Source: SAR86 cluster bacterium AG-339-G14 (GTDB taxonomy: Bacteria > Pseudomonadota > Gammaproteobacteria > Magnimaribacterales > AG-339-G14). Taken from it: 64,000 bases of DNA. The notes beneath the pieces were generated by a model that had not been told where the DNA came from, did not search any database, and saw nothing but the letters and a program-made list of their open reading frames with translations. Positions 4,400 through 42,922 of this stretch are shown here, one piece after another (the stretch's first letter is position 1; the number at the start of each line of letters is the position of its first letter). Position numbers and translations under genes: made by a program. The DNA lies in assembly GCA_003282105.1 (NCBI GenBank), contig QCAB01000001.1, positions 49,785 to 113,784 of the forward strand, in the 5' to 3' direction.

Positions 4400-5934
<1,535 letters not shown>

Positions 5935-6190
5935 CTATAAACACACTATCTTTGTTGTGAGTGTTCGCTCGAATTACATGAATTAATTTCAGACCTTAAA
6001 TAAGGTTTAGAGAGTTTTTTAAAAGTATTGTGATCCAAATATTAATAATTACTGTTATCAATTATTAATAATTATTTAAAAGTTTTATAACTTTTAAACA
6101 TCAAGTTCAAGAATCGAATTCAATTCGATTCTGAATGCTAATGGCAAATAAAATTAGGCGCTTATTATTCAAAGAAACTTAACTTTTAAA

Positions 6191-6211
6191 CTTTTTTTGT
6201 TTAGAAACATT
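6191..6211 (+). other. 5' arm of pre-23S rRNA processing stem; pairs with 9116-9138
   Basis: tttagaaacatt (6200-6211) is the exact reverse complement of aatgtttctaaa (9116-9127). ctttttt (6191-6197) pairs with aaaaaag (9132-9138). Confidence 0.75.
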
Positions 6212-9115
<2,904 letters not shown>

Positions 9116-9179
9116 AATGTTTCTAAATTTGAAAAAAGACCTAATTTTTTTTGTGGATCACAATAATGAACAAGAATTT

Positions 9180-9298
9180 TGTCCGATGACAATAGCAAGT
9201 GTGGCCCACCTGATTCCATATCGAACTCAGAAGTGAAACCACTTAGCGCCGATGGTAGTGTAGTTTTTTCTATGCGAGAGTAGGACATCGTCGGACTT
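9180..9298 (+). rRNA. rrf: 5S ribosomal RNA
   Basis: tgtccgatgac...cccacctgattccatatcgaactcagaagtgaaacc...gcgccgatggtagtgt...atgcgagagtaggacatcgtcggac aligns along its length with E. coli 5S. The terminal helix is formed by gtccga/tcggac. Confidence 0.92.
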
Positions 9299-30683: not shown

Positions 30684-31544
30684 TTATTTATTTATTAAAG
30701 TGCCAACACCTTTCTGAGTTAATATCTCCAACAATACAGCATGAGGAACTCTCCCATCAACTATGTGCGCATAATTTACCCCATTGTTTAACGCTTCTAT
30801 TGCAGCTTTTAACTTTGGTACCATCCCTCCGTTAATTATTTTTTTATTTCTTTGCAATTTTTTCGATTCTTTCAAACTTATTTCGGAAATCTTTTTACCA
30901 TTTGAGTCATTGATGCCATGAACATCAGTCAGAAGAATAATTTTTTCTGCTTTTATTGATGCGGCAACAAAGCATGCAACGTCGTCTGCATTAATGTTAA
31001 GCGGCGTTTCTTTTCCACTCCATCCTATTGGCGAAATTATTGGAATTTCTCTACTTGACAGTACTTTTAAGAGTATAGATTTATTTATCTTTTTTACGCT
31101 TCCTACCTCGCCAAGTTTTTTATTTTTTTGTTTTTCTGCAGAAATAAATTTTAATTTTTTACCAGCAAAAGATTTTCCAAATCCTCCCCAAGAATCAATA
31201 AGATTCTTAATGTCCTTATTAATTTCATTATCTAAAATACTTTGGATTATTTTTATCATTTCTAGAGATGTAACTCTTAAGCCTTCATGGAATTCGTAAT
31301 TAATTTTTTTGTTTTTTAAAGCCTTCCCTATTTGAGGTCCTCCTCCATGAACAATTAAAGGATTAATGCCAACGGCTTTCATTAAAACTACATCTCTCGC
31401 AAAGCTTTTTCTTAAAAAACTGTTTTGCATTGCGCTTCCGCCATATTTGATCACAATATTTTTTCCAGAGAATTTTTGAATAAATGGTAAAGCCTCAGTC
31501 AAAACTTTAGATGTATTGATTGCGTTTTTTCTTAAAATGCTCAT
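30684..31544 (-). CDS. argB: Acetylglutamate kinase
   Basis: Start moved to ATG at 31544 (MSILRKNAINTSKVLTEALPFIQKF), which removes the overlap with algC. VIKYGGSAM and HGGGPQI motifs. Confidence 0.9.
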   Translation of the reverse strand: MSILRKNAINTSKVLTEALPFIQKFSGKNIVIKYGGSAMQNSFLRKSFARDVVLMKAVGINPLIVHGGGPQIGKALKNKKINYEFHEGLRVTSLEMIKIIQSILDNEINKDIKNLIDSWGGFGKSFAGKKLKFISAEKQKNKKLGEVGSVKKINKSILLKVLSSREIPIISPIGWSGKETPLNINADDVACFVAASIKAEKIILLTDVHGINDSNGKKISEISLKESKKLQRNKKIINGGMVPKLKAAIEALNNGVNYAHIVDGRVPHAVLLEILTQKGVGTLINK

Positions 31545-31551
31545 GTTTAAT

Positions 31552-32919
31552 TCAAAATTTAAGTTTACTATTGATTTTGAACAACTCTTTTTGAAAAAGT
31601 TCTTGTATCGATTTAAGTTCTTTATTTGTCTCTGCTTCAAACCTAAGCACCAAACTTGGCGTTGTGTTTGAAGCTCTTATTAATCCCCATGATCTAGGGC
31701 CTTCAAGACGCAAACCATCAATAGTAATTGCGTTGAACCCCTCGGGTTTAAAATTATTTTTTAATTTACTTATAACTTCAAATTTATATTTGTCATCTGT
31801 AGAAATTTTAATTTCAGGAGTATTGAACATATTTGGAAATTCATTGAAAACTTCATGAGTTGTTTTCTGTTGATTAGATAGAATTTCTAAAAGTTTTAAG
31901 CCTGAAAAAATTCCATCATCAAAACCATACCAATCTTCATTATAAAAAATATGCCCACTCATTTCCCCCCCTAAAACGGCATTATTCTTTTTAATTTCGG
32001 ACTTGATAAAGGAGTGACCGGTTTTTGTCATGATTGGGGTACCTTTATATTTTTCAATTGTTCGTTTGAGTTGATTGGAACACTTAACGTCAAACACAAT
32101 TTTTGATTCTTTATTTCTTTCCAAGATATCTTTTGACATTAAAGAGAGATAGCGATCAGGGTAGATAATTTCACCGTCACTATCAACAACACCAAGTCTG
32201 TCAGCGTCTCCATCAAGAGCGATGCCAACATCTGCTTTATGCAATTCAACAGCTTCAATTAGGTCAGATAAATTTTTAGGGTCGCTCGGGTCGGGATGAT
32301 GATTGGGAAAATTTCCATCAACTTCACAAAATAATTCTATAAGCTCATTGGAGAATTGTTTAAATATAGTTGGACCTAAAACTGATCCTGCTCCATTTCC
32401 GCAATCTAAAACTACTTTTAATTTTTTCTTCAAAGTAATTTTTTCATTCAGCTCATCAATGTATTTTTGATCGAAGGATTGATCGGATAGCTTACCTTTA
32501 CCCATTAAAAAATTATCGTCTTCAATTCTTTTTTTTAACAAAAGAATTTCTTTCTCTTTGAGAGAACTTCTATCCAAGACAATTTTAAACCCGTTATAGT
32601 TTTTAGGATTATGACTTCCAGTTACCATGACCCCATTTTCGGTTTTACCTTTAAAAGTTGCAAAATACAAAAGCGGGGTGTGAACCATTCCAATATCAAT
32701 CACATTGCATCCTGTTTTTAAGATGCCTTGTATTAAATAATCGCTAACTTCTTTTCCTGAAAGTCTGCCATCTCTTCCCACATAGATATCTTTAGCTTTT
32801 CTTCCCATCACTTCGCTTCCGATAGCCTTGCCTATATTTTCAACAAGCTTTGGTGTCAATTCTTCATCGACGATACCCCTGATGTCATAAGCTCTAAATA
32901 CTTCAGAATTCACTTTCAT
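31552..32919 (-). CDS. algC: Phosphomannomutase/phosphoglucomutase
   Basis: 455 aa. Catalytic-serine loop TGSHNP, Mg loop DGDADR, sugar loop GGEMSGH. Confidence 0.9.
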   Translation of the reverse strand: MKVNSEVFRAYDIRGIVDEELTPKLVENIGKAIGSEVMGRKAKDIYVGRDGRLSGKEVSDYLIQGILKTGCNVIDIGMVHTPLLYFATFKGKTENGVMVTGSHNPKNYNGFKIVLDRSSLKEKEILLLKKRIEDDNFLMGKGKLSDQSFDQKYIDELNEKITLKKKLKVVLDCGNGAGSVLGPTIFKQFSNELIELFCEVDGNFPNHHPDPSDPKNLSDLIEAVELHKADVGIALDGDADRLGVVDSDGEIIYPDRYLSLMSKDILERNKESKIVFDVKCSNQLKRTIEKYKGTPIMTKTGHSFIKSEIKKNNAVLGGEMSGHIFYNEDWYGFDDGIFSGLKLLEILSNQQKTTHEVFNEFPNMFNTPEIKISTDDKYKFEVISKLKNNFKPEGFNAITIDGLRLEGPRSWGLIRASNTTPSLVLRFEAETNKELKSIQELFQKELFKINSKLKF

Positions 32920-32961
32920 ATAAGATTCTCCCGCTTATAATGATTCTCTTAAAAAAGATTT

Positions 32962-33885
32962 ATGACTAATTTTGAAACTAATGATGGATTCATATGGATG
33001 GATGGAGAATTTGTCGAATGGGCTGAGGCAAAAATACATGTTTTGACACATACTTTACATTATGGGCTTGGTGTTTTTGAAGGGGTAAGAGCTTATTTAA
33101 CTCATGAGGGCACTAAAATATTCAGACTTGAAGACCATACCAACCGTTTATTTGAATCTGCCCAAGCCGTTAACATGCAAATTCCCTTCTCGAAGAGTGA
33201 AATAAATAATGCCCAAAAAGAAATTTTTATCAAGAACAACCTCAAGGAAGGATACATTCGTCCGATGTGTTTTTATGGACCTCAGGGTATGGGCTTGAGA
33301 GCTGATAACTTGAAAACGCACTGCATAGTTGCTGCTTGGGAATGGCCAAGTTACATGTCTCCTGAGGCATTTGAAAAGGGCATCAAAATTAAAATTTCTT
33401 CCTACAAACGACAAACCAATAATCTTGTATCTAGATCTAAAGTAAATGGAAATTACGTTACGTCAATTATGGCTTTGCAGGAGGCTTTGCAAGAAGGCTA
33501 TGACGAAGCTTTGCTTTTGGATGACGAAGGTAATATCTCTGAAGGATCTGGAGAAAACCTTTTCCTAATAAAAAATGGTGAAGTTTTTACTCCAGATTTA
33601 GATGCATCGCTGGATGGAATCACTCGAAAGAGTATTATCAGCCTAGCTGAAGAAGATGGACTGAAGGTAAATATAAAAAAAATCTCTTTGGAAGAAATTC
33701 TTCAAGCAGATGAACTATTTTTTACTGGAACAGCTGCTGAAGTGGTTCCAATAAAATCGGTTGACGAAAGTCTTATCGCCGACGGTAAGAGAGGAAAAAT
33801 TACCACTATCCTTCAACGAAAATATTTTGATCAAGTTCGCGGGAAAAGAACAACTTTTTCTGAATGGCTCACCCCAATAAGTTAA
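32962..33885 (+). CDS. ilvE: Branched-chain amino acid aminotransferase
   Basis: 307 aa. Fold-type IV motifs HYGLGVFEGVRAY, EGSGENLF, GITR. Confidence 0.9.
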   Translation: MTNFETNDGFIWMDGEFVEWAEAKIHVLTHTLHYGLGVFEGVRAYLTHEGTKIFRLEDHTNRLFESAQAVNMQIPFSKSEINNAQKEIFIKNNLKEGYIRPMCFYGPQGMGLRADNLKTHCIVAAWEWPSYMSPEAFEKGIKIKISSYKRQTNNLVSRSKVNGNYVTSIMALQEALQEGYDEALLLDDEGNISEGSGENLFLIKNGEVFTPDLDASLDGITRKSIISLAEEDGLKVNIKKISLEEILQADELFFTGTAAEVVPIKSVDESLIADGKRGKITTILQRKYFDQVRGKRTTFSEWLTPIS

Positions 33886-33901
33886 GTCATAAATAATTTT
33901 T

Positions 33902-35137
33902 ATGTCTAATTTGAAAGTAGCTTTGCTTAGTTACAGAAGTAACCCTTTTTCTGGAGGACAAGGGATTTATATCAAATACTTAAGTAGATCCCTTGTGAAG
34001 CTTGGGCATGAAGTGACTGTATTTTCAGGCCCTCCTTATCCAGACTTAGATTCAAGAGTAAAATTAGTTAAGGTACCAAGCCTTGATTTATACAGTAAAA
34101 AAAATAAATTCTCAGACGTCTCAATAAAAAAATTAAGAAATTTTCTTAATTTTTTTGAATGGATCAGTATTAACTCAGGAGGATTTTCTGAACCTTACAC
34201 ATTCGGAAAGAGAATAAAAAAACTTCTGAAGAATAAATTAAATGAATTTGATGTGATTCATGACAATCAAAGTTTATGTTACGAACTTTTGTATTTTCAA
34301 AGAAAAATTCCTTTGGTCACAACTATTCATCATCCAATCTCTAAAGATCTGAAATATGAATTAAAAAATATTAAATCTATTTTCTTAAAACTTTTAAAAA
34401 TTAGATGGCACTCATTTCTATGGATGCAGACTTTTGTTGCGAAACGCTTGAAGAATATTATTGCAGTTTCGTCCTCTTCAAAGAAAGATATCCATGAAGA
34501 TTTTAAGGTAGATTTGAATAAAATTTCGGTCATTCTTAATGGTATAGATAACGAAATTTTTTTTCCTCAAAATGATAAGACTGTAACTAAAAGAATTGTT
34601 ACGACAGCAAGTGCTGACGTTCCTCTAAAGGGCTTAGATTATCTCTTGGATGCTTTTTCAAATTTATCTGAACAATATTCTGATCTCGAGCTTCATGTTA
34701 TTGGAGGTAAGAAAGATGGCGGCCACACCCAAAGGAAAATAAAGGAATTAAATATAGAAAAAAAAGTTTTTTTTAATAATGATTTAACTTTTGATGAAGT
34801 AAGAGATGTATATTGTTCTGCGGATTTAGTTGTCATTCCCTCTCTTTATGAAGGATTTGGATTTGCTGTTGGCGAAGCCATGGCTTGTAACAAAGCAGTT
34901 ATTACAACAAATGGTGGGGCTATTCCTGAAGTAATCGGAGACTGTGGGATTATCGTGGATATACAAAATTCATTGCAACTAGAAGAAGGAATTAAAAAAT
35001 TATTTAAAGATGAAGTGTTAAAATCTAAATTAGCAGATAAAGGTTACGAAAGGGTAGTTAGATTTCTAAATTGGGATATTGTTGCTTCCGAAGTTACCAA
35101 AGTGTACGAAGAATCAATAAAATCTTTTAAAAAATAA
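33902..35137 (+). CDS. Glycosyltransferase, GT-B fold (family 4-like)
   Basis: 411 aa. N-terminal SNPFSGGQGIYIKYLSRSLVKLGHEV. C-terminal EX7E motif EGFGFAVGEAMA. Confidence 0.75.
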   Translation: MSNLKVALLSYRSNPFSGGQGIYIKYLSRSLVKLGHEVTVFSGPPYPDLDSRVKLVKVPSLDLYSKKNKFSDVSIKKLRNFLNFFEWISINSGGFSEPYTFGKRIKKLLKNKLNEFDVIHDNQSLCYELLYFQRKIPLVTTIHHPISKDLKYELKNIKSIFLKLLKIRWHSFLWMQTFVAKRLKNIIAVSSSSKKDIHEDFKVDLNKISVILNGIDNEIFFPQNDKTVTKRIVTTASADVPLKGLDYLLDAFSNLSEQYSDLELHVIGGKKDGGHTQRKIKELNIEKKVFFNNDLTFDEVRDVYCSADLVVIPSLYEGFGFAVGEAMACNKAVITTNGGAIPEVIGDCGIIVDIQNSLQLEEGIKKLFKDEVLKSKLADKGYERVVRFLNWDIVASEVTKVYEESIKSFKK

Positions 35138-35847
35138 TGCAAACTATCCGATACAAAAATTTTATTTTTACACCAAATAAAAAATTGCTTGACGTCGGGT
35201 GCGGTCAAGGTAGACATTCTTTTGGTGCTTATATGCATACAGACATAGAGGTAATAGGTGTCGACATGGGTTTTCAGGATGTATTGAAAGCAAAACAAAA
35301 TTTTAATCAATTCAATGAAAAAAATGATTCTAAAAGTTGTAATTTTTTTGTCGCCAATGCAAAAAATTTGCCATTCAAAAACAATGAATTTGACTATGTT
35401 GTTTGTTCTGAGGTTCTTGAACACATCATTGACTACGAAAGTGCTCTTAAAGAAATTAAGAGAGTTCTTAAACCCGGAGGATCATTTGCCTTGAGTGTTC
35501 CCAAATATTTTCCAGAATGGATTTGTTGGAAATTAAGCAAGGAATATCAAAATGAGCCGGGTGGCCACGTAAGAATTTTTAAATATAAAAAATTAAAAGA
35601 AGACGTTAAATCATTGGGTTTTGAGTTTAAAAAAAGACATTGGGCGCATGCCTTACACTCTCCTTACTGGTGGATGCAGTGTTTATTTTGGAAAACTAAA
35701 GAAAAATCTTTTTTAATTAAGTCTTATCATTCATTTTTGGTTTGGGACATGACTAAAAATCCTCTGATAACAAAAATTCTGGAATATTTGCTCCAACCTT
35801 TTATTGGCAAAAGCGTCGTAATGTATTTCGAAAATAGAGAGAATTAA
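35137..35847 (+). CDS. Class I SAM-dependent methyltransferase
   Basis: 236 aa. Motif I LDVGCGQGRH, post-I GVDM, motif II/III VVCSEVLEHI...LKPGGSFALSVP. 1-nt overlap (TAATG) with the GT4 gene. Confidence 0.75.
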   Translation: MQTIRYKNFIFTPNKKLLDVGCGQGRHSFGAYMHTDIEVIGVDMGFQDVLKAKQNFNQFNEKNDSKSCNFFVANAKNLPFKNNEFDYVVCSEVLEHIIDYESALKEIKRVLKPGGSFALSVPKYFPEWICWKLSKEYQNEPGGHVRIFKYKKLKEDVKSLGFEFKKRHWAHALHSPYWWMQCLFWKTKEKSFLIKSYHSFLVWDMTKNPLITKILEYLLQPFIGKSVVMYFENREN

Positions 35848-35848
35848 T

Positions 35849-36838
35849 TTGAAAGACAAGCAATCATTAAACTATCTAGGTGAATACATTGCAAAATGTC
35901 AAAACCCGCAGGGCGCAATAGCTTGGGAGCCTAATGGAAAAGTAGATCCTTGGGATCATGTTGAGTCCATAATGGCTTTAAATCTACTTGATTTCAAAGA
36001 TGAAGCTTTAAAGGGTTTCGATTGGCTTATATCTTCACAACAGCCTGACGGTTCTTGGTATTCAGAATATCAAGGCGAACGAGTAACAAATTTAAACAAA
36101 GAAACAAATTTCTGCGCTTATATTTCTTCTGGAGCTCTTCATCACTTTTTAAATTTTGAAGAGCAAAGTTTTTTAGAGAAAATTTGGCCAACTCTAAAAA
36201 AATCAATTGAGTTCGTTAAATCGGGTCAAACTGACGAAGGAGACATTTTGTGGGCAAAAGACAACAACGAAGAGTGGATGGATGATTCTTTGTTAACCGG
36301 TTGTGCTTCAATATTCAAAAGCTTAAATGATTTTAATAAGATTGCAAAAACTCTTGGCTATAAAGAATTTATTCTAAAAGAAGAAATAAAAAATTTAAAA
36401 GATTCAATCACTAACAAACCAGAGAGATTCGATAGAACTTGGGAGAGTAAGGCTCGCTACAGCATGGACTGGTATTACCCAGTTCTTTGTGGCATCCATA
36501 GTGTGCAAGACTCAAAAAAAATCATTAACGAAAGATGGGATGAATTTGTTGTGCCTGGTTTAGGATGCAAATGCGTTTCAGAAGAACCTTGGGTAACGGT
36601 AGCAGAATCATGTGAGTTAATTTTGGCTTTAAATAAAATAGATGAAAAAAAAGCGGCTTTGGAGATATTTGAAAATATTTCTAAACTAATTGATCAAAAA
36701 GATAAACTTTTTTGGACAGGATATGTTTACAAAGACGACAAGTTTTGGCCAATTGAAAAGCCAAGCTGGACGGCAGCTGCAGTTGTACTTGCAGCTAATT
36801 CACTTTTTGAATTCAATTCAACTTCAAATTTTTTTTAA
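35849..36838 (+). CDS. Prenyltransferase / terpenoid-cyclase-like (alpha/alpha)6-barrel repeat protein
   Basis: 329 aa, TTG start 1 nt after the methyltransferase stop. QW-type repeat SSQQPDGSWYSEY plus repeated aromatic/acidic helical hairpins. No catalytic assignment possible by eye; a glycoside-hydrolase-like barrel is an alternative. Confidence 0.45.
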   Translation: MKDKQSLNYLGEYIAKCQNPQGAIAWEPNGKVDPWDHVESIMALNLLDFKDEALKGFDWLISSQQPDGSWYSEYQGERVTNLNKETNFCAYISSGALHHFLNFEEQSFLEKIWPTLKKSIEFVKSGQTDEGDILWAKDNNEEWMDDSLLTGCASIFKSLNDFNKIAKTLGYKEFILKEEIKNLKDSITNKPERFDRTWESKARYSMDWYYPVLCGIHSVQDSKKIINERWDEFVVPGLGCKCVSEEPWVTVAESCELILALNKIDEKKAALEIFENISKLIDQKDKLFWTGYVYKDDKFWPIEKPSWTAAAVVLAANSLFEFNSTSNFF

Positions 36839-37423
36839 GACCGCTAAACTTCTTGTTAGAGAAATCTCTTCAAAATTCCCAGATTCTTTGGCTTTGCAAA
36901 AAATTTCATAAGGCGGTCTGCCACCGTCTTTTGGGTCTGGAAACACATCATGGATCAATAAAAATCCACTTTTCACGATATGAGGAGCCCAATTTGTGTA
37001 ATCTGCGTTAGCACTTTCTCTGCTATGACCACCGTCAATAAAGACCATTCCTAAGGGAATCTCCCAGTTTTTAGAAGTCTCTTCAGAGTCAGCGACTAAT
37101 GGTAAAACAAAATTTGCTAAATTTGATTCTCTTAAATTTCTTAAAAATTCTGGAAGACTATTGAAGCAAGAAATATTTTGGTCAAAAAGGTCAGAATCAT
37201 GGTATTCCTCTCCTAATTGATGTTCTTCAGAACCGGTGTGATGATCAATGGTGAAAAGTATATTTTTATTTTTTTTGCAAACATTGCCTATAATTAAAGC
37301 TGATTTGCCACAATAAGTGCCGATTTCAAGGCAAGGACCTAGCTTCGAGCACTGCTTTGCAATTTTCGCTAATTCTTTACCTTCTGTATTGTCAAGAAAA
37401 CCTTTTACAGTGTTTAATGTCAT
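36824..37423 (-). CDS. Class I SAM-dependent methyltransferase (Methyltransf_24-like)
   Basis: 199 aa. LEIGTYCGKSALIIG SAM-binding loop, VFIDGGH and LLIHDV motifs. Confidence 0.6.
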   Translation of the reverse strand: MTLNTVKGFLDNTEGKELAKIAKQCSKLGPCLEIGTYCGKSALIIGNVCKKNKNILFTIDHHTGSEEHQLGEEYHDSDLFDQNISCFNSLPEFLRNLRESNLANFVLPLVADSEETSKNWEIPLGMVFIDGGHSRESANADYTNWAPHIVKSGFLLIHDVFPDPKDGGRPPYEIFCKAKESGNFEEISLTRSLAVLKKI

Positions 37424-37449
37424 TTCTAATCGATAATAAAATAATCTTT

Positions 37450-38328
37450 ATGAAATTTGAAGCCAGAAAAACCATATCCTGTGAGGCGGGAGAATTTTCT
37501 TATTTAAAAAAAGAAGGCGAGAATGATCTGAGTCCAATCATTTTTTTTCACGCTACAGGATTAAATCTGGAAACTTACAATAATTTCTTCGAAGAGCTTT
37601 TCAATCAATTTGAAGGCAAGAGAACTTTAATTGCCTTTGATCAAAGAGGTCACGGTAAATCTAAAGCAGAAGCTGATCCAAGCAAATTATTCTCATGGGA
37701 CCAGTATGCAGACGACGCAGTTTTAATTTTAAAAGCATTAGAAATAAAAAAAGCTTCTTTTATAGGGCACTCTATGGGGGCAATTGTTGCTGCAGAGATT
37801 TGTAGAAGGAACATATTTGGAGTAGAAAATTTGGCTCTTATGGATCCAGTACTGCTTTATAACCCTAAAACTGCTTTTTTTTCCTCAATTCGTCAAAAAT
37901 TAAATATGTGGCGATCACCAACAATTGCGCATTATGCCGCCAAAAGAAGAAGTGAATTTAAAAATCTCGATGAAGCAAAAAGTCATTATCTTGGAAGGAG
38001 TATTTTTGCTTCCTGGCCAGAAACTTCAATTGAGGATTATTTGATAGGTGGCTTGGAAGATCATAATGATTCAATGAAATTGAGTTGTGATCCGACTTGG
38101 GAAGCGAAGACTTTTGAAACAGTTTCATTAAATTCTTATAGAACCTTAAAAAACATAAAAGTTCCTGTCTTGATTCTCAAAGCTAGTATGAATTCAACGA
38201 TCCCAAATGTAGGTTTAAACTATCTTGCTAAAAACGAGAAAATAAAATTATTTGAAGTCGAAGGTACTCATTTTTTTCTAATAGAAAAACCTAAAGAAAT
38301 TGCAAAAAAAATTAATCAATTTTTTTGA
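37450..38328 (+). CDS. Alpha/beta-fold hydrolase
   Basis: Start moved to ATG 37450 (MKFEARK...). Nucleophile elbow GHSMGA, oxyanion region IIFFHATGLN, late His in EGTHF. Confidence 0.7.
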   Translation: MKFEARKTISCEAGEFSYLKKEGENDLSPIIFFHATGLNLETYNNFFEELFNQFEGKRTLIAFDQRGHGKSKAEADPSKLFSWDQYADDAVLILKALEIKKASFIGHSMGAIVAAEICRRNIFGVENLALMDPVLLYNPKTAFFSSIRQKLNMWRSPTIAHYAAKRRSEFKNLDEAKSHYLGRSIFASWPETSIEDYLIGGLEDHNDSMKLSCDPTWEAKTFETVSLNSYRTLKNIKVPVLILKASMNSTIPNVGLNYLAKNEKIKLFEVEGTHFFLIEKPKEIAKKINQFF

Positions 38329-38336
38329 ATAAGAAA

Positions 38337-39062
38337 ATGGAAAATAAAGTTAATGTTATTTGTATGAAATGGGGAGAAAAATACGATTCTTCCTATGTAA
38401 ATATTTTGTACAACATGGTCGATAGAAATTTAAAGAGACCTTTTAGATTTGTTTGTTTTACTGATAATAAATCAGGCTTATTAGATTCAATAGAATCATT
38501 TGATTTGCCTAGCTTAAATCTTCCTGTGGGAATTCCTGAAAGAGGGTGGATGAAAATCTCTACCTTTGCTTCAAATTTGCATGATCTTTCTGGCAAGACT
38601 CTTTTTTTGGATCTGGATATAGTTATCATAGATAACATCGATGCTTTTTTTGACTACTCCGGTGATTTTTTAATCATAAAAGACTTTAGAAAAAAAAATT
38701 TCATAGGCAACAGCTCGGTTTATAGATTTGAAATTGGAAAGTATTATGATGTTTTGGAACATTTCAGAGAAAACTTTGAAAAAATAAAGACATCGTTTAG
38801 AAATGAACAAGAATTTTTGTCTGATTACATGAAAAAGAATCATTCTTTAGAATATTGGCCGGAAGATTGGTGCAAAAGCTTTAAAAAAGATTGTGTAGAG
38901 AAAGGAATAAAACAATTTTTTAAGCCTCCAAAAATTCCTTCTTCGGCTAAAATAATCATCTTCCATGGCAAACCCAATCCTCCAGATGCAATGATTGGGA
39001 AAGGTGGAAAATGGTATAGAAAGGTACTGCCAACTCCATGGATTAAAGATAATTGGAGATAA
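38337..39062 (+). CDS. Putative nucleotide-sugar-dependent glycosyltransferase (GT-A-like, DxD), uncharacterised family
   Basis: About 241 aa from ATG 38337 (TTG 38325 also possible). VICMKWGEKYDSSYVNILYNMVDRNL..FRFVCFTDN followed by LFLDLDIVIIDNID (DxD-like). Family membership is from memory only. Confidence 0.35.
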   Translation: MENKVNVICMKWGEKYDSSYVNILYNMVDRNLKRPFRFVCFTDNKSGLLDSIESFDLPSLNLPVGIPERGWMKISTFASNLHDLSGKTLFLDLDIVIIDNIDAFFDYSGDFLIIKDFRKKNFIGNSSVYRFEIGKYYDVLEHFRENFEKIKTSFRNEQEFLSDYMKKNHSLEYWPEDWCKSFKKDCVEKGIKQFFKPPKIPSSAKIIIFHGKPNPPDAMIGKGGKWYRKVLPTPWIKDNWR

Positions 39063-39066
39063 TAAA

Positions 39067-39879
39067 ATGTCATCGGAATCAATAAAACCTATTTCTTTAC
39101 AAACTTTAAGAGATCTAAAAAGCTCAGGGAAAAAATTTGCTGCATTAACTTCCTATGAATCAACAATGACCACCATGATGTGTGAGGCTGGAGTTGATCT
39201 AATTTTAGTCGGAGACAGTCTCGGAATGGTGATTCAAGGTCATGACTCAACTGTCCCTGTTTCGATGGAAGATATTTTATATCATCTGAGATGCGTCAAA
39301 AATGGTAATTCTAATGCACATATAATGGCAGACATGCCTTTTATGAGTTATGCAACTGAGCAGCTTGCTTACACCAATGCGACTCGACTGATGCAGGGCG
39401 GTGCAAACAGCATCAAAGTAGAAGGAGGAGAGGTGATTCTTAAAATAACAGAACTATTGGCCAATAAAGGTATTCCTATTTGTGCTCACTTAGGGTTAAC
39501 ACCTCAATCAATTAATAGAATTGGCGGTTATTTCGTTCAAGGCAGAGATCCTTCTTCTCATGACAAATTTATAGCCGAGGCTAAAGACCTAGAAAATGCG
39601 GGAGCAGAACTTATCCTTTTAGAATGTATACCAGTCGAGTTAACTGAAAAAATAGTAGATGCATTGTCCATTCCAACTATAGGAATAGGAGCTGGATCTT
39701 TGACCGATGGCCAGATAATGGTGATACATGATTTACTTGGCATCACTTGTTTGGAAACGCCGCCTAAATTTGTTAAAAATTTTTTGGAAAAAGGGGAAAC
39801 AATTCAAAGTGCCATTAGAAAATATGTTCTTGAAGTAAAAAGTGGAGCTTACCCTTCAACTGAACATTGTTTTAAATAG
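39067..39879 (+). CDS. panB: 3-methyl-2-oxobutanoate hydroxymethyltransferase
   Basis: Start at ATG 39067 (MSSESIKPISLQTL...). LTSYE, LVGDSLGMV, VKVEGG and GHLGLTPQS-like motifs. Confidence 0.9.
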   Translation: MSSESIKPISLQTLRDLKSSGKKFAALTSYESTMTTMMCEAGVDLILVGDSLGMVIQGHDSTVPVSMEDILYHLRCVKNGNSNAHIMADMPFMSYATEQLAYTNATRLMQGGANSIKVEGGEVILKITELLANKGIPICAHLGLTPQSINRIGGYFVQGRDPSSHDKFIAEAKDLENAGAELILLECIPVELTEKIVDALSIPTIGIGAGSLTDGQIMVIHDLLGITCLETPPKFVKNFLEKGETIQSAIRKYVLEVKSGAYPSTEHCFK

Positions 39880-40733
39880 TGATCAAAGTTCAATCTTTAA
39901 ATCAACTTTCAACGATTCCTTTCAAAAAACCTTTCGCATTGATACCAACAATGGGAAACTTGCATGCGGGACATATAAGCTTATTAAAGACCGCATTAAA
40001 AAAAAACTACAATCCAGTAGTCTCAATTTTTGTAAATCCGCTTCAATTTGGTCCCAACGAAGATTTAGATAAATATCCAAGGTCGTTGGAAAGAGATTTA
40101 GAAATTTTAGAAGAAAATAATTGTCATGGAGTTTTTATTCCTTCACAAAGTGAAATTCTAAAAAATATAGAATCTCTTATTGCGCCATTTGCCAATAAGT
40201 TATGTGGCAAGTCGAGACCTGGACATTTTGATGGGGTCATTACAATTGTTAATAGGCTTTTTGAGTTAATAAAACCCGATGCTTGTGTTTTTGGTATGAA
40301 AGATTTTCAACAACAGTTAATTATTAAACAGTTGATCAAGCAAAAAAAATATCAAATAAAATTTTTATTGGCTTCTACTGAAAGAGACGAAAATGGTTTA
40401 GCACTCTCGTCTCGAAATAATTACCTCAGTGAACATGAAACAATCCACGCTTCCTCGATTTTTAAATTTCTAAATGAAATAAAAAATGACATTGAATTTA
40501 GCTATCAAAAAAATACGAATTTATCGCTAGACGATCTTGATTTAATACAAAAAAAATGCAAAAAGAAAATTGAAAAGGAAGGGTTTAAGATTGATTATCT
40601 TGATATTTCGGATTCCGAAACCTTGGAGGAAATAAAATTGGATACTAAGATTGTTTTGATTGCAATTGCAGTTTTTTACAAAGAAGTAAGACTTATTGAT
40701 AACTTAATTTTAGATTTAACCTCTTTTTCTTAA
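39879..40733 (+). CDS. panC: Pantoate--beta-alanine ligase
   Basis: 284 aa. PTMGNLHAGHISL (HIGH-like), FVNPLQFGPNEDL, RPGHFDGV. GTG start overlapping the panB stop by 1 nt. Confidence 0.9.
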   Translation: MIKVQSLNQLSTIPFKKPFALIPTMGNLHAGHISLLKTALKKNYNPVVSIFVNPLQFGPNEDLDKYPRSLERDLEILEENNCHGVFIPSQSEILKNIESLIAPFANKLCGKSRPGHFDGVITIVNRLFELIKPDACVFGMKDFQQQLIIKQLIKQKKYQIKFLLASTERDENGLALSSRNNYLSEHETIHASSIFKFLNEIKNDIEFSYQKNTNLSLDDLDLIQKKCKKKIEKEGFKIDYLDISDSETLEEIKLDTKIVLIAIAVFYKEVRLIDNLILDLTSFS

Positions 40734-41609
40734 AAGGTCTTCCGGATAAAAAGACTTTTCCCCTTCTGGTCTATTTTTAAATCTCCTATGAGACCATAAA
40801 TAATTTTCAGGATTTTTCTTTATCTTTTCTTCAATTCTTAGATTTATTTCCCTTAAATCCTCTTCCATTTTATGACCTTTCAAAATTACTCTATCTAAAT
40901 TTACTTCGTATTTTGAATCTCTTTTTTCTAGAGAGAATAAATACACATCGCAATCAGCTTTTTTTGCTGCTATGTAGGGAAATTTTACCGTCAAAGCTTT
41001 GTGCCCAAAAAATTCCACGAAAATAGAGCTTTTATAACCATAATCTTGATCTGGGGCATATAAACATGCTTTACCTTTTTTCAGAAAATCTAAAAGATCT
41101 AAAATTTCATTCGGGTTAAAAATCCTCTCCGTAAATTTTTTTCGACTTGCCTTAAATAAATTATCAACAATCTTATTACTCTGTGGCCGAGCCATTCCTG
41201 AGACAGGCATAAATAATGAGGCTATTCTTACCACTAAGTCTAAGTTAGGAGTATGCATGAATAGTACTAATTTGCCCCTTGAAGGGTTTTTAAGATCTGA
41301 AACTTTTTTTATTTCCTCAAAATTTATTAATAGTTCCTTGAGTTTTTTATCTGAAGCCATAAATGCATTCAAAAAATCAAAAAGCGACTTTCCTAAAAGT
41401 AAAAAACTCTTTTTTAAAATAATATTTATTTCTTCGTCCTTTTTTTCAGGAAAGCATTTTTTTAAGTTCCATCTTGAAATTTCTCTTCTTTCTTCAAGAG
41501 TTTTAAAAAAAATATGCCCTAGAAAGGTTCCCAAAGAAAATTGGACGCTTCTGGGAAGCATATTTAATGTCTTCAACAAAGCATATATAAGAAATTCCAA
41601 TATTTTCAT
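40716..41609 (-). CDS. lpxL: Lipid A biosynthesis (Kdo)2-lipid IVA acyltransferase, LpxL/HtrB family
   Basis: 297 aa. N-terminal membrane helix, HX4D catalytic motif (HTPNLD). Divergent from waaA. Confidence 0.65.
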   Translation of the reverse strand: MKILEFLIYALLKTLNMLPRSVQFSLGTFLGHIFFKTLEERREISRWNLKKCFPEKKDEEINIILKKSFLLLGKSLFDFLNAFMASDKKLKELLINFEEIKKVSDLKNPSRGKLVLFMHTPNLDLVVRIASLFMPVSGMARPQSNKIVDNLFKASRKKFTERIFNPNEILDLLDFLKKGKACLYAPDQDYGYKSSIFVEFFGHKALTVKFPYIAAKKADCDVYLFSLEKRDSKYEVNLDRVILKGHKMEEDLREINLRIEEKIKKNPENYLWSHRRFKNRPEGEKSFYPEDLLRKRG

Positions 41610-41683
41610 TAATTTATTTTAACTTACTCAAAATTGCTAATTAGAGTATTTTGCATATTTGCCTCTGATAAAATATATGTAGA

Positions 41684-42922
41684 ATGCTTTTCTACAATCT
41701 TTTTTTGTACATCCTTTTTCCTTTTGCGATTTTGAGATTATTTTCTAAAAAAGAATTTAATATCTCAGAGTTGCCAAGAATAAAAGAAAGATTTGGAAAA
41801 GTTAATCTTGAAAATAATTTCCAAGAAAAACCCATATGGATACACGCAGTCTCTGTTGGTGAAGTAAAAGTAGCTAGCCTATTGGTAAAAGAAATTAAAA
41901 AACGGCATCCTAATATTAAAATCTTTTTAACTGTTTCGACTCTTACCGGATCACGACAGCTTAAGAAACTTTATGACAATGATTTAGAACACCAATATCT
42001 GCCTTATGATTTGAATATCTTTGTAAAAAGATTTTTATTGAGTATAAAACCCAAATGTTTAATTTTAATAGAAACTGAAATTTGGCCTAATTTAATAAAT
42101 AATTGTGTCAAACAAAACATTCCCATCGCACTCCTCAATGGACGTTTGTCGGAGAAATCGTTAAAAAAATATCAGCGTTTTGAAACTTTTTTCAAAAAAA
42201 TATTTTCACAACTAAGTTTGGTAATATCACAAAGTCAAAAAGACTCAGACAATTTTGTTATTGCAGGAGTAATTCCACAAAAAGTTTTTTTCGATCATTC
42301 ATTAAAATTTTCTGACTTAGTTTCTCCGAATGATTCAAAGAAAATATACAAGGCCGACGAAAAAAAAGAAAAAAAAATTATAGTTTGTGCAAGCACACAT
42401 CCTAAAGAAGAGATTTTTCTAATAAATACGTATAAAAAACTTAACGATTCAAACTTTCACTTGGTCTTAATACCAAGGCATCCTCATAGAAGCGAAGAGG
42501 TGCAAAATATTCTAGAGGATAATAAAGTTACTTACGCGAAATTCTCTAACGTTTTGGATTTAAGTTATGAAATGACGTTAGTTGATAAAATGGGTTTAGT
42601 TGAATCTTTTTTTAAAGTAGCTGACATTGCTTTCATGGGAGGGACTTTGATTCCTCATGGCGGACAAAATTTTCTAGAAGCTGTAAAACATGGGTTGCCA
42701 ATATATTCAGGAGCTAGCACATACAATTTTTCAGCAATCGTCGAGGATTTGCAAAGACTGAAAATATTAAATATTATAGAAACCGAGTCTGATTTAGCAT
42801 CTGCATGGAGGAATTTTTCTTACAATTCTGATTTAAAAAATCGGAGTAACGATTATCTTTTATCTAGACAAGGATCAGTCGAAAGATCGATAGAAAAGCT
42901 TTTACCACTTATAGAAGCTTGA
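41684..42922 (+). CDS. waaA: 3-deoxy-D-manno-octulosonic acid (Kdo) transferase
   Basis: 412 aa. IWIHAVSVGE motif, N-terminal anchor, C-terminal GGTLIPHGGQNFLE. Confidence 0.85.
   Translation: MLFYNLFLYILFPFAILRLFSKKEFNISELPRIKERFGKVNLENNFQEKPIWIHAVSVGEVKVASLLVKEIKKRHPNIKIFLTVSTLTGSRQLKKLYDNDLEHQYLPYDLNIFVKRFLLSIKPKCLILIETEIWPNLINNCVKQNIPIALLNGRLSEKSLKKYQRFETFFKKIFSQLSLVISQSQKDSDNFVIAGVIPQKVFFDHSLKFSDLVSPNDSKKIYKADEKKEKKIIVCASTHPKEEIFLINTYKKLNDSNFHLVLIPRHPHRSEEVQNILEDNKVTYAKFSNVLDLSYEMTLVDKMGLVESFFKVADIAFMGGTLIPHGGQNFLEAVKHGLPIYSGASTYNFSAIVEDLQRLKILNIIETESDLASAWRNFSYNSDLKNRSNDYLLSRQGSVERSIEKLLPLIEA

Follow-up and report, generated by a model that had tools for sequence, protein, structure and literature searches.

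[quoted passage not shown] The MMP cluster, which codes for ManT, pMeT3, MmpH, and MeT1, was described in 2019 and 2023 and corresponds to MHAS_04402-04405 in M. hassiacum and MSMEG_6481-6484 in M. smegmatis (PMC9883506). In the literature that could be searched, we came upon no description of the cluster in bacteria other than Actinobacteria, and the abundant marine SAR86 would be a previously unreported host for this known system. The block, which lies within a 64,000-nucleotide stretch of DNA (the window), is composite: the family of gene 6 occurs in LPS-core loci and gene 5 is specific to SAR86, so the six genes are not the single unit for which a sequence-only reading had taken them. The genes and their neighbors, with positions in the window, are:

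31552-32919, minus strand: phosphomannomutase/phosphoglucomutase (syntenic homologue with PGM_PMM domains I-IV)
32962-33885, plus strand: ilvE, branched-chain aminotransferase, left border (Aminotran_4 in the syntenic homologue)
33902-35137, plus strand: gene 1, GT4 (GT-B) ManT-like glycosyltransferase, 411 aa
35137-35847, plus strand: gene 2, pMeT3-like SAM methyltransferase, 236 aa
35849-36838, plus strand: gene 3, MmpH-like (α/α)6 barrel protein, 329 aa, TTG start
36824-37423, minus strand: gene 4, MeT1-like Methyltransf_24 protein, 199 aa
37450-38328, plus strand: gene 5, α/β hydrolase, 292 aa
38337-39062, plus strand: gene 6, DxD GT-A glycosyltransferase (predicted fold), 241 aa
39067-42922, mixed set: panB, panC, lpxL (minus strand), and waaA, right border

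The six open reading frames and all of their junctions, read off the sequence, are as the sequence-only reading described them. Gene 1 starts 16 nt after ilvE and overlaps gene 2 by 1 nt in a TAATG at 35137; the gene 2 stop codon (TAA, 35845-35847) is followed 1 nt later by the gene 3 TTG at 35849; genes 3 and 4 are convergent with a 15-nt overlap; genes 4 and 5 diverge across a 26-nt gap (37424-37449); and 4 nt separate the gene 6 TAA (39060-39062) from the panB ATG at 39067. The motifs it quoted are present, namely EX7E in gene 1 (E317-E325), QQPDGSWY in gene 3 (residues 64-71), GHSMGA in gene 5 (residues 106-111), and DxD in gene 6; its family guesses for genes 1, 2, 4, and 5 are the same as the Pfam assignments, and its guesses of an (α/α)6 protein for gene 3 and a DxD glycosyltransferase for gene 6 were both correct. 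At the right border, the families in a syntenic locus are Pantoate_transf, Pantoate_ligase, Lip_A_acyltrans, and Glycos_transf_N; this border and gene 6 make up the LPS-core flank of the locus.

The proteins of genes 1, 3, and 4 share 39-42% identity with solved MMP proteins over essentially their full lengths. By phmmer, gene 1 matches M. hassiacum ManT (PDB 7qsg) with E 9.3e-84 and 39% identity over 400 columns, the next-best PDB match having an E of 1e-17. ManT residues G15, H142, K240, E313, G314, F315, and E321, among which K240, E313, and E321 have been tested experimentally and E313, G314, and F315 contact the mannosyl group, correspond to gene 1 G18, H143, K243, E317, G318, F319, and E325, and all seven are invariant in 74 homologues. 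We predict from these similarities that gene 1 codes for an α-(1→4)-mannosyltransferase elongating methylmannose oligomers. The proposed contact of ManT to the guanine of GDP-mannose, D293, is replaced by F297 in gene 1; this position is invariant in 49 actinobacterial homologues, is F, Q, R, H, or E in SAR86, and is variable in Alphaproteobacteria too, and the donor nucleotide could therefore differ. The position of ManT L317 is Phe in both SAR86 and Alphaproteobacteria.

We identify gene 3 as a putative MmpH, an (α/α)6 endo-α-(1→4)-mannosidase. It matches MmpH (PDB 7qsj) with E 2.2e-78 and 42% identity (phmmer), and the next-best PDB match is a local one of ~90 residues to squalene-hopene cyclase (E 2.5e-7). 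Gene 3 keeps every one of the 11 MmpH residues published for the active site and subsites (D33, W35, D36, N87, F88, T150, M206, Y210, E253, E256, and W307 in gene 3), including those corresponding to the mutationally tested MmpH D47, D50, and E262, and eight of these positions do not vary across 81 homologues. Because the first ATG is codon 42, which lies 3′ of D33, W35, and D36, the TTG at 35849, or a start very near to it, must serve. The protein had been read as prenyltransferase- or terpene-cyclase-like, and we rejected this on the 7qsj match, the complete set of glycosidase residues, and the Pfam scores, all of which are under threshold (12.3 bits for Prenyltrans against a cut-off of 26.5, and 12-14 bits over the Prenyltrans and SQHop_cyclase models against cut-offs of 26); the QW-like motif amounts to no more than local similarity. 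We note that a 63% identical homologue of gene 3 carries the NCBI label 'prenyltransferase'.

Both methyltransferase genes have counterparts in the MMP cluster. Gene 4 (Pfam Methyltransf_24, E 2.4e-22) matches M. hassiacum MeT1 (PDB 6g7d) with E 1.4e-50 and 42% identity over 194 residues (phmmer), and as MeT1 methylates the 1-OH of the reducing end, gene 4 is a predicted 1-O-methyltransferase capping that end; meT1 is convergent with mmpH in mycobacteria, SAR86, and Parvibaculales. Gene 2 codes for a class I SAM methyltransferase (Pfam Methyltransf_31/11/23/25, E ~1e-23), and in four bacterial lineages every locus that extends to this position has a homologue, 37-67% identical, flanked by those of ManT and MmpH. 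We assign it by this position as the predicted pMeT3, a putative 3-O-methyltransferase, as its mycobacterial counterpart is itself only putative (PMC9883506).

The proteins of genes 1-4 are predicted to be cytoplasmic: none of the six proteins in the block has a hydrophobic segment, the top 19-residue Kyte-Doolittle mean being 1.27, compared with 1.86 for WaaA. By homology to the characterized mycobacterial enzymes, all four steps would operate as a cycle. MmpH would cleave an existing cytoplasmic chain of α-(1→4)-linked 3-O-methylmannose, producing defined oligomers that ManT would extend as primers, using a nucleotide-mannose donor; the pMeT3-like enzyme would then methylate the added mannose units at O-3, and every reducing end newly formed would receive its 1-O-methyl cap from MeT1. 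The polymer would thereby 'replicate', partly conservatively. Because the chemistry comes from actinobacterial hosts only, we infer the SAR86 product. A phosphomannomutase/phosphoglucomutase gene lies two genes upstream on the minus strand and is kept upstream of ilvE in SAR86 loci that extend far enough, which qualifies the earlier statement that no nucleotide-sugar synthesis genes accompany the block; the enzyme is a possible source of mannose-1-phosphate, although adjacency need not be functional. The MMP polymer would be soluble and form an amphipathic helix able to enclose long acyl chains, and it has been proposed to sequester fatty acyl-CoA, although such buffering is debated even in mycobacteria. 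SAR86 carbon metabolism is centered on lipid uptake and β-oxidation, and the genes for β-oxidation rank among those with the most copies in SAR86; the most likely role of the polymer there would be to buffer fatty acids or acyl-CoAs. Mutation of MmpH slows mycobacterial growth at 15 °C, and the system possibly has a role in cold adaptation in SAR86 too, while the position of the cluster among LPS-core genes leaves some room for an envelope-linked role.

The four-gene set is old, vertically inherited SAR86 core content in the LPS-core region, not an acquired island. The block had looked by eye more AT-rich than its neighbors, but its GC content (0.327) equals that of the flanks (0.341 left, 0.326 right), as does the GC3 of the six genes (0.23-0.29, compared with 0.21-0.30 in flanking genes). 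In all SAR86 genome loci with flanks, the set lies between ilvE and lpxL; among marine metagenome contigs, of which those of SAR86 type have an ilvE 60-84% identical to that of the window, all 38 that continue for 4.7 kb or more past ilvE carry ManT downstream, and all four genes are in 24 of the 26 with enough sequence. The MmpH and ManT neighbor-joining trees each have monophyletic phylum-level groups, with SAR86 as its own deep clade. The suggestion that the glycosyltransferase, methyltransferase, and 'prenyltransferase' triad recurs in actinobacteria was well founded, and manT, meT3, and mmpH follow one another in this order in all 80 of the loci compared, which come from Actinobacteria, SAR86, Alphaproteobacteria, and Deltaproteobacteria, but the triad does have an assigned product, MMP. 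The cluster also occurs in Parvibaculales and Syntrophales, and in many Streptomyces loci the triad has meT1 3-6 kb away. Accessory genes are lineage-specific: an α/β hydrolase in SAR86, a different one in Parvibaculales, and a hexapeptide acyltransferase and a B12-radical SAM enzyme in Syntrophales.

Gene 5 codes for a SAR86-only serine α/β hydrolase (Pfam Abhydrolase_1/6) with an intact predicted triad. It has only 187 homologues at E≤1e-10, with marine metagenomes as the sources among the matches listed; in the two contexts examined the homologue is in the same slot adjoining meT1, and the gene is missing from one SAR86 subclade that retains the four core genes. An HATG oxyanion motif, the G-H-S108-M-G nucleophile elbow, and H274 are invariant, with an acidic residue (D132/E) after strand 6. 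The AlphaFold2 model (pLDDT 86.5) has generic esterases, lipases, dehalogenases, and thioesterases as Foldseek neighbors. Gene 5 is a possible accessory esterase or thioesterase, and we tentatively suggest that it may act on acyl groups linked to the MMP system.

No Pfam or NCBIfam model, Glyco_transf_8 included, matched gene 6, but its AlphaFold2 model (pLDDT 92) predicts a GT-A glycosyltransferase with a GT8-like fold; its Foldseek neighbors are LARGE1, glycogenin, LgtC, and UGGT (E 1e-8 to 1e-7). It resembles GT8-type LgtC and glycogenin in its GT-A fold, DxD, and a TM-score of ~0.6, although identity to these and other structural neighbors is 12-18%. The LDLD motif (D92/D94) is invariant in 26 homologues. 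Within SAR86 the gene is restricted to the nearest relatives of the window, and its 1219 homologues include one in Acinetobacter located after ilvE among GT25, Stealth, and WaaZ genes, one in Natronospirillum among O-antigen ligase, Kdo kinase, GT2, and GT4 genes, and one in Hydrogenophaga that overlaps a WaaA-Kdo kinase gene. The context of Kdo transferase, Kdo kinase, and O-antigen ligase genes is shared with the glycosyltransferases of Acinetobacter outer-core loci. Because its family sits in LPS-core loci elsewhere, we group gene 6 with lpxL/waaA; it probably acts on the LPS/LOS core, outside the methylmannose set.

The location of the block between ilvE and lpxL/waaA, where other SAR86 lineages have heptosyltransferases, HldE, and a WaaP-like kinase, together with the LPS-core affinities of the gene 6 family, raises the alternative that all six genes form one inserted island making a new methylated glycolipid or decorating the LPS core or lipid A, with the barrel protein acting on a prenyl or terpenoid lipid, as its local squalene-hopene cyclase similarity and the annotation of its homologue might suggest. 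We regard this as quite improbable. Genes 1, 3, and 4 match MMP enzymes at least 60 orders of magnitude above anything else, whereas the terpenoid models score below cut-off and the glycosidase residues of MmpH are all there; composition and universal presence oppose an island, and the same four genes occur in Gram-positive Actinobacteria that have no LPS genes. Capping of a free reducing end by MeT1 is incompatible with a lipid-linked glycan, and the set includes a dedicated endo-hydrolase. Neither a membrane segment nor a flippase, ligase, or initiating transferase is encoded in the block, and the earlier view that it is not a standard O-antigen or capsule locus holds.

An alternative to which we give a small but real chance is that the same self-priming cut-and-extend enzymes make a different polymer in SAR86, one that differs in its hexose, donor nucleotide, or chain length or that bears additional acyl groups handled by gene 5. 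Identity is only ~40%, accessory genes vary by lineage, Streptomyces griseus makes an acetylated MMP, and the D293 and L317 positions of ManT differ in SAR86 and Alphaproteobacteria. However, the D293 contact was modelled, not tested, the mannosyl contacts of ManT are invariant, and MmpH is reported to be highly specific for MMP, with every subsite residue kept here. It is far less probable still, to the point of being barely credible, that the four genes are catabolic, serving to take up methylated mannans from seawater and break them down. SAR86 is a known degrader of polysaccharides and lipids with many glycosidases in its genomes, and the set does include a glycoside hydrolase, but this has neither a signal peptide nor a membrane segment. 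The other three proteins, one glycosyltransferase and two SAM methyltransferases, are biosynthetic, as is the mycobacterial system, and neither a transporter nor a TonB receptor is encoded in the block. An MMP system remains our preferred reading of genes 1-4.

Comparable mannose homopolymers of Gram-negative bacteria include the ABC-transporter-dependent polymannan O-antigens. The O-polysaccharide of Oligotropha carboxidovorans is LPS-linked and built of α-1,2-linked 3-O-methylmannose (PMC9883506). Such LPS-linked (methyl)mannans share with the SAR86 block GT4-type mannosyltransferases, SAM methyltransferases, a Gram-negative host, and genes near LPS loci, but they depend on a lipid carrier, an ABC exporter, and a ligase, the export parts being absent from the block, and unlike the block they have no endo-hydrolase or reducing-end methyltransferase. 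Mycobacterial MGLP (6-O-methylglucose lipopolysaccharide) is likewise a cytoplasmic methylated α-1,4 hexose helix for which acyl-chain binding has been proposed, but it has another sugar, other enzymes, and a glucosylglycerate primer, and no MGLP genes are in the block. The acetylated MMP of Streptomyces griseus exemplifies the same system with a lineage-specific decoration, although the SAR86 block has no acyltransferase gene and its sole accessory enzyme is a hydrolase. The closest comparison is with the mycobacterial MMP cluster itself. The SAR86 set differs in its host, a low-GC Gram-negative marine gammaproteobacterium, in an identity of ~40%, in the replacement of ManT D293, in a product predicted from its genes, and in its position inside an LPS-core region and ahead of a SAR86-specific α/β hydrolase; nonetheless, it codes for the same four protein families, whose PDB entries, wherever a structure exists, stand far ahead of every other match, keeps all tested catalytic residues of MmpH and ManT in proteins that are all soluble, and has the manT, meT3, mmpH, and convergent meT1 order of M. 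hassiacum.

Six open reading frames lie between ilvE and panB, at the positions and with all the junction details that the sequence-only reading had described, and Pfam confirms the families it had guessed for genes 1, 2, 4 and 5 (GT4, class I methyltransferase, Methyltransf_24 and Abhydrolase_1, respectively). [quoted passage not shown]

Features of the window discussed here (window positions)
4401-9296, + strand: complete rRNA operon (16S 4401-5934, 23S 6212-9117, 5S 9182-9296)
32962-33885: ilvE, left border of the block
33902-35137, + strand: gene 1, ORF, GT4 glycosyltransferase (Pfam GT4)
35137-35847, + strand: gene 2, ORF, class I methyltransferase (Pfam)
35849-36838, + strand: gene 3, ORF with TTG start, barrel protein, no Pfam or NCBIfam family above threshold
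36824-37423, - strand: gene 4, ORF, Methyltransf_24 protein (Pfam)
37450-38328, + strand: gene 5, ORF, alpha/beta hydrolase (Pfam Abhydrolase_1, E 1.5e-15)
38337-39062, + strand: gene 6, ORF, 241-aa protein, no Pfam or NCBIfam family above threshold
39067: start of panB, right border of the block

Read from the sequence, genes 1 and 2 overlap by 1 nt through TAATG, the TTG of gene 3 lies 1 nt past the gene 2 stop, genes 3 and 4 converge with a 15-nt overlap, and gene 6, which ends 4 nt before panB, starts 8 nt past the gene 5 stop, or overlaps it by 4 nt if an alternative upstream TTG is used. Gene 3 needs its TTG start, because its first ATG (codon 42) falls 3′ of the catalytic residues D33, W35 and D36. 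Genes 4 and 5 diverge across a gap of only 26 nt (37424-37449), so that the promoters of meT1 (gene 4) and gene 5 must each fall within the opposite coding sequence. A consensus scan finds -10-like hexamers on both strands within 37424-37449, the scanned region overall being not above chance. Over 32800-41800 the scan counts 25 promoter-like sites where 31 are expected and six terminator-like sites where five are expected, and it yields nothing usable.

The MMP cluster has been described by Ripoll-Rozada et al. (2019) and Maranha et al. (2023; PMC9883506), and phmmer searches of the PDB link three of the window's proteins to its structurally characterized members. Gene 1 matches 7qsg, the Mycobacterium hassiacum ManT, which is deposited under a generic name (E 9.3e-84, 39% identity); gene 3 matches 7qsj, the methylmannose polysaccharide hydrolase MmpH (E 2.2e-78, 42% identity); and gene 4 matches 6g7d, the 1-O-methyltransferase MeT1 (E 1.4e-50, 42% identity over 194 residues). 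The runner-up matches are weaker by at least 60 orders of magnitude. Gene 2 occupies the position of pMeT3, a putative 3-O-methyltransferase of class I encoded between manT and mmpH (PMC9883506), as does a methyltransferase gene in 80 of 80 related loci. By gene order and strand, manT, meT3 and mmpH with an adjacent meT1 are arranged in the window as in M. hassiacum MHAS_04402-04405, and the order is the same in the mycobacterial loci L032, L070 and L078 of our set of compared genome loci. We thus assign genes 1, 3 and 4, on sequence similarity, as ManT, MmpH and MeT1, and gene 2, by position, as a putative pMeT3. The sequence-only reading had described its first three genes as a triad without an assigned product; these matches supply one, that of the MMP cluster of PMC9883506.

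The active sites are consistent with this assignment. The catalytic and subsite residues published for MmpH are D47, W49, D50, N101, F102, T163, M215, Y219, E262, E265 and W315, with D47 or D50 acting together with E262 as catalytic acid/base, and the D47A, D50A and E262A substitutions reportedly lower activity drastically or abolish it (PMC9883506); mapped by alignment, all 11 are identical in gene 3. Gene 1 likewise retains the ManT catalytic and donor-binding residues G15, H142, K240, E313, G314, F315 and E321, and these are invariant in 74 homologues. D293 of ManT, modelled as a contact with the guanine of GDP-mannose (PMC9883506), is not conserved in gene 1, in which F297 aligns with it (F297-D298 at 34790-34795). 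All 49 actinobacterial homologues carry D at this position; SAR86 has F, Q, R, H or E, and Alphaproteobacteria have G, S, D or F. Proteobacterial ManT-type enzymes may therefore recognize the donor nucleotide differently from their actinobacterial counterparts.

Gene 3 had been taken for a prenyltransferase- or terpene-cyclase-like protein, an appearance explained by a lone QW-like motif and a local resemblance to squalene-hopene cyclase (E 2.5e-7 in the PDB search). We reject this label: the one motif is not the repeated QW series, the Pfam scores fall far under their cut-offs (Prenyltrans, 12.3 bits against 26.5; SQHop_cyclase_C, 14.4 bits against 26.1), and it is MmpH that matches over the full length. 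There is an annotation gap here, as no Pfam or NCBIfam model covers the MmpH family, most of the more than 6000 MmpH homologues detected lack an informative name, and at least one, 63% identical to gene 3, is called "prenyltransferase" by NCBI.

With one genome scanned per species, at least 599 MmpH-encoding loci came up, from which 80 were kept for neighbourhood comparison. Among the matches listed, those closest to gene 3 are in 15 SAR86 single-cell or metagenome-assembled genomes (49-58% identity; two labelled just Gammaproteobacteria), which places the window in the SAR86 clade of gammaproteobacteria. The remaining hosts belong to the Actinobacteria (Mycobacterium, Nocardia, Streptomyces, Embleya and others), the Alphaproteobacteria (Parvibaculales, Rhodobiaceae) and the Deltaproteobacteria (Syntrophales). 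Throughout the 80 loci, Actinobacteria included, the genes run in the order ManT, methyltransferase, MmpH, which bears out the earlier suggestion that the triad recurs there; meT1 follows mmpH directly and convergently in SAR86, Mycobacterium and Parvibaculales. In neighbour-joining trees of both MmpH and ManT, the SAR86, alphaproteobacterial, deltaproteobacterial and actinobacterial sequences form separate clades, that of SAR86 being deep. The MMP-type system, thought to be actinobacterial, thus extends to SAR86 and two further proteobacterial orders. The published survey covered actinobacterial genomes only (PMC9883506), and in the literature searched, methylmannose papers from 2023 onward included, we found no report of the MMP cluster outside Actinobacteria, whether in SAR86 or in any other proteobacterium, an absence of evidence only, given the incomplete coverage of that search.

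Could the block be a horizontally acquired island? The sequence-only reading had described it as an inserted island that by eye looked even more AT-rich than its neighbours. Its GC content is 0.327 against 0.341 and 0.326 in the flanks, and in GC3 the six genes, at 0.23-0.29, stay inside the range of neighbouring genes (0.21-0.30), so that the additional AT-richness disappears on computation. Wherever the flanks of a SAR86 genome locus extend far enough, the four core genes lie between ilvE and lpxL. Using ilvE as bait in marine metagenomes, and counting as informative those contigs with at least 4.7 kb downstream of ilvE, we found ManT in 38 of 38, at a distance of either 13-30 nt or 2.5-3.7 kb; the 20 ilvE contigs without ManT all have less than 3 kb of downstream sequence. 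All four core genes are present in 24 of the 26 metagenome contigs long enough to hold them, and no presence/absence polymorphism was seen. ORF calls place no integrase or transposase in the block. On composition, the fixed site, the 38 contigs and the separate SAR86 clade, we reject an acquired island, which also fails by the two marks that the sequence-only reading itself looked to, deviant composition and presence/absence polymorphism, neither of which is seen.

Two further features of the window can be accounted for. The stretch with a GC content of 0.42-0.52, in a window otherwise at about 0.33-0.36, is due to the rRNA operon. The argB ORF (30684-31640, - strand), called from a TTG, is 318 aa long and shares 89 nt with the 3′ end of the phosphomannomutase gene; its counterparts in syntenic relatives have 286 aa, which makes the ATG at 31544 the probable real start.

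Gene 5 belongs to a small family of 187 proteins; those listed are of marine metagenome origin, and in both genomic contexts examined the homologue holds the same slot, divergent from meT1. An HATG oxyanion motif, the GHS108MG elbow, H274 and an acid after strand 6 (D132 or E) are conserved in 22 sequences, and because these elements are invariant, gene 5 probably encodes an active serine hydrolase. Its Foldseek neighbours are generic alpha/beta hydrolases (esterases, lipases, dehalogenases and thioesterases), among which there is no clue to the substrate. One SAR86 subclade lacks gene 5 and keeps the core.

Other lineages have neighbours of their own. Among the alphaproteobacterial loci (L031, L043, L045, L067, L068 and L080), those of Parvibaculales have an alpha/beta hydrolase gene upstream of manT, and two of them (L031 and L043) also have a DUF1329 protein downstream of meT1. 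In the Deltaproteobacteria/Syntrophales loci (L040, L071, L075 and L077), the genes immediately after mmpH encode a hexapeptide acyltransferase and a B12-binding radical SAM enzyme. The Parvibaculales hydrolase matches gene 5 at just 30% identity over 69 residues around the nucleophile, and we therefore reject a single accessory hydrolase common to Parvibaculales and SAR86, in favour of independent recruitment or coincidence. Such lineage-specific neighbours may point to forms of the polymer that are acylated or C-methylated, and the Parvibaculales hydrolase and the Syntrophales acyltransferase hint, if faintly, at lineage-specific acyl handling.

The ilvE-lpxL interval is an LPS-core region that varies across SAR86, its constant part being the four-gene core. 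Around this core, some other SAR86 lineages (loci L003, L008 and L010-L015) have GT9 heptosyltransferases, HldE, a WaaP-like kinase, an FkbM methyltransferase and another GT4; the window's lineage has none of these LPS-core genes in the interval and has gene 6 instead, which suggests that SAR86 contains both heptose-containing and heptose-less core types. Neither Pfam (Glyco_transf_8 included) nor NCBIfam gives a family for gene 6 at E ≤ 0.01, and its best PDB sequence match is at E 0.24. Its AlphaFold2 model (pLDDT 92) predicts a GT-A protein of GT8-like fold, with glycogenin, LgtC, LARGE1 and UGGT as Foldseek neighbours (E 1e-8 to 1e-7), and its DxD motif (D92/D94) is invariant among homologues.

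Among the 1219 members detected in the gene 6 family, an Acinetobacter homologue (loci L084/L085, 3586-6756) closely follows ilvE and a UDP-glucose dehydrogenase gene and opens an outer-core-type glycosyltransferase locus, so that a link between ilvE and the LPS core is common to SAR86 and Acinetobacter. In Natronospirillum the homologue has O-antigen ligase, Kdo kinase, GT2 and GT4 genes around it, and in Hydrogenophaga it overlaps a WaaA-Kdo kinase gene; within SAR86, gene 6 is limited to the closest relatives of the window (L081-L083 and L091). Given these contexts and this restricted occurrence, we group gene 6 with lpxL/waaA rather than with the methylmannose genes, and it appears to be an LPS-core glycosyltransferase. 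The LPS decoration that had been suggested for the whole block thus seems to hold for gene 6 and not for genes 1 to 4, whose product is expected to be free. On the other side of gene 6, panB and panC (39067-40733) are gone from this slot in several SAR86 lineages (L003, L006, L008, L010, L011 and L015), and an early SAR86 genome paper names pantothenate synthesis as a pathway that SAR86A/B lack. Pantothenate prototrophy thus seems to be a variable trait of the clade.

By homology, we infer a working scheme for genes 1 to 4 in which MmpH would cut existing polymer into oligomers, ManT would elongate these, the gene 2 enzyme would 3-O-methylate the newly added units, and MeT1 would cap free reducing ends, in keeping with the partly conservative "replication" of the polymer in the mycobacterial scheme (PMC9883506). 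None of the six proteins has a hydrophobic segment, and a methyl cap at the reducing end is incompatible with a lipid-linked glycan, so we expect a free, cytoplasmic oligo- or polysaccharide. A proposed role of MMP in mycobacteria is the sequestration of acyl-CoAs, and their growth at 15 °C is slower when MmpH is lost (PMC9883506). SAR86, which presumably lives on lipids, carries beta-oxidation genes in very many copies. Taking the mycobacterial proposal and this beta-oxidation load together, acyl-chain buffering would be the most plausible role in SAR86. We speculate, quite tentatively, that polymethylated mannose polysaccharides could be an ancient and widespread bacterial device, serving in SAR86 as an intracellular carrier or buffer of the fatty acids and acyl-CoAs that sustain the cell, with the SAR86-specific gene 5 hydrolase acting on the bound acyl groups.

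If so, the device would be common to SAR86, Parvibaculales, Syntrophales and Actinobacteria, and not peculiar to mycobacteria. Hitherto MMP has counted as a trait of mycobacteria or of Actinobacteria, and work on it has been driven by its bearing on non-tuberculous mycobacterial disease; with the complete cluster fixed in streamlined SAR86 and found in two other proteobacterial orders, the function of the polymer must make sense outside the mycolic-acid world. Because of its reliance on beta-oxidation, SAR86 offers a clean test of the debated acyl-chain chaperone idea, and the cluster suggests a bacterial source for some of the O-methyl sugars in marine dissolved organic matter. The product that marks the MMP cluster is a 1-O-methyl-capped alpha-(1→4)-linked chain of about 11-14 3-O-methylmannose units, and one of this kind would be predicted for the window's genes, which place a known system in one of the ocean's most abundant lineages of heterotrophic bacteria.
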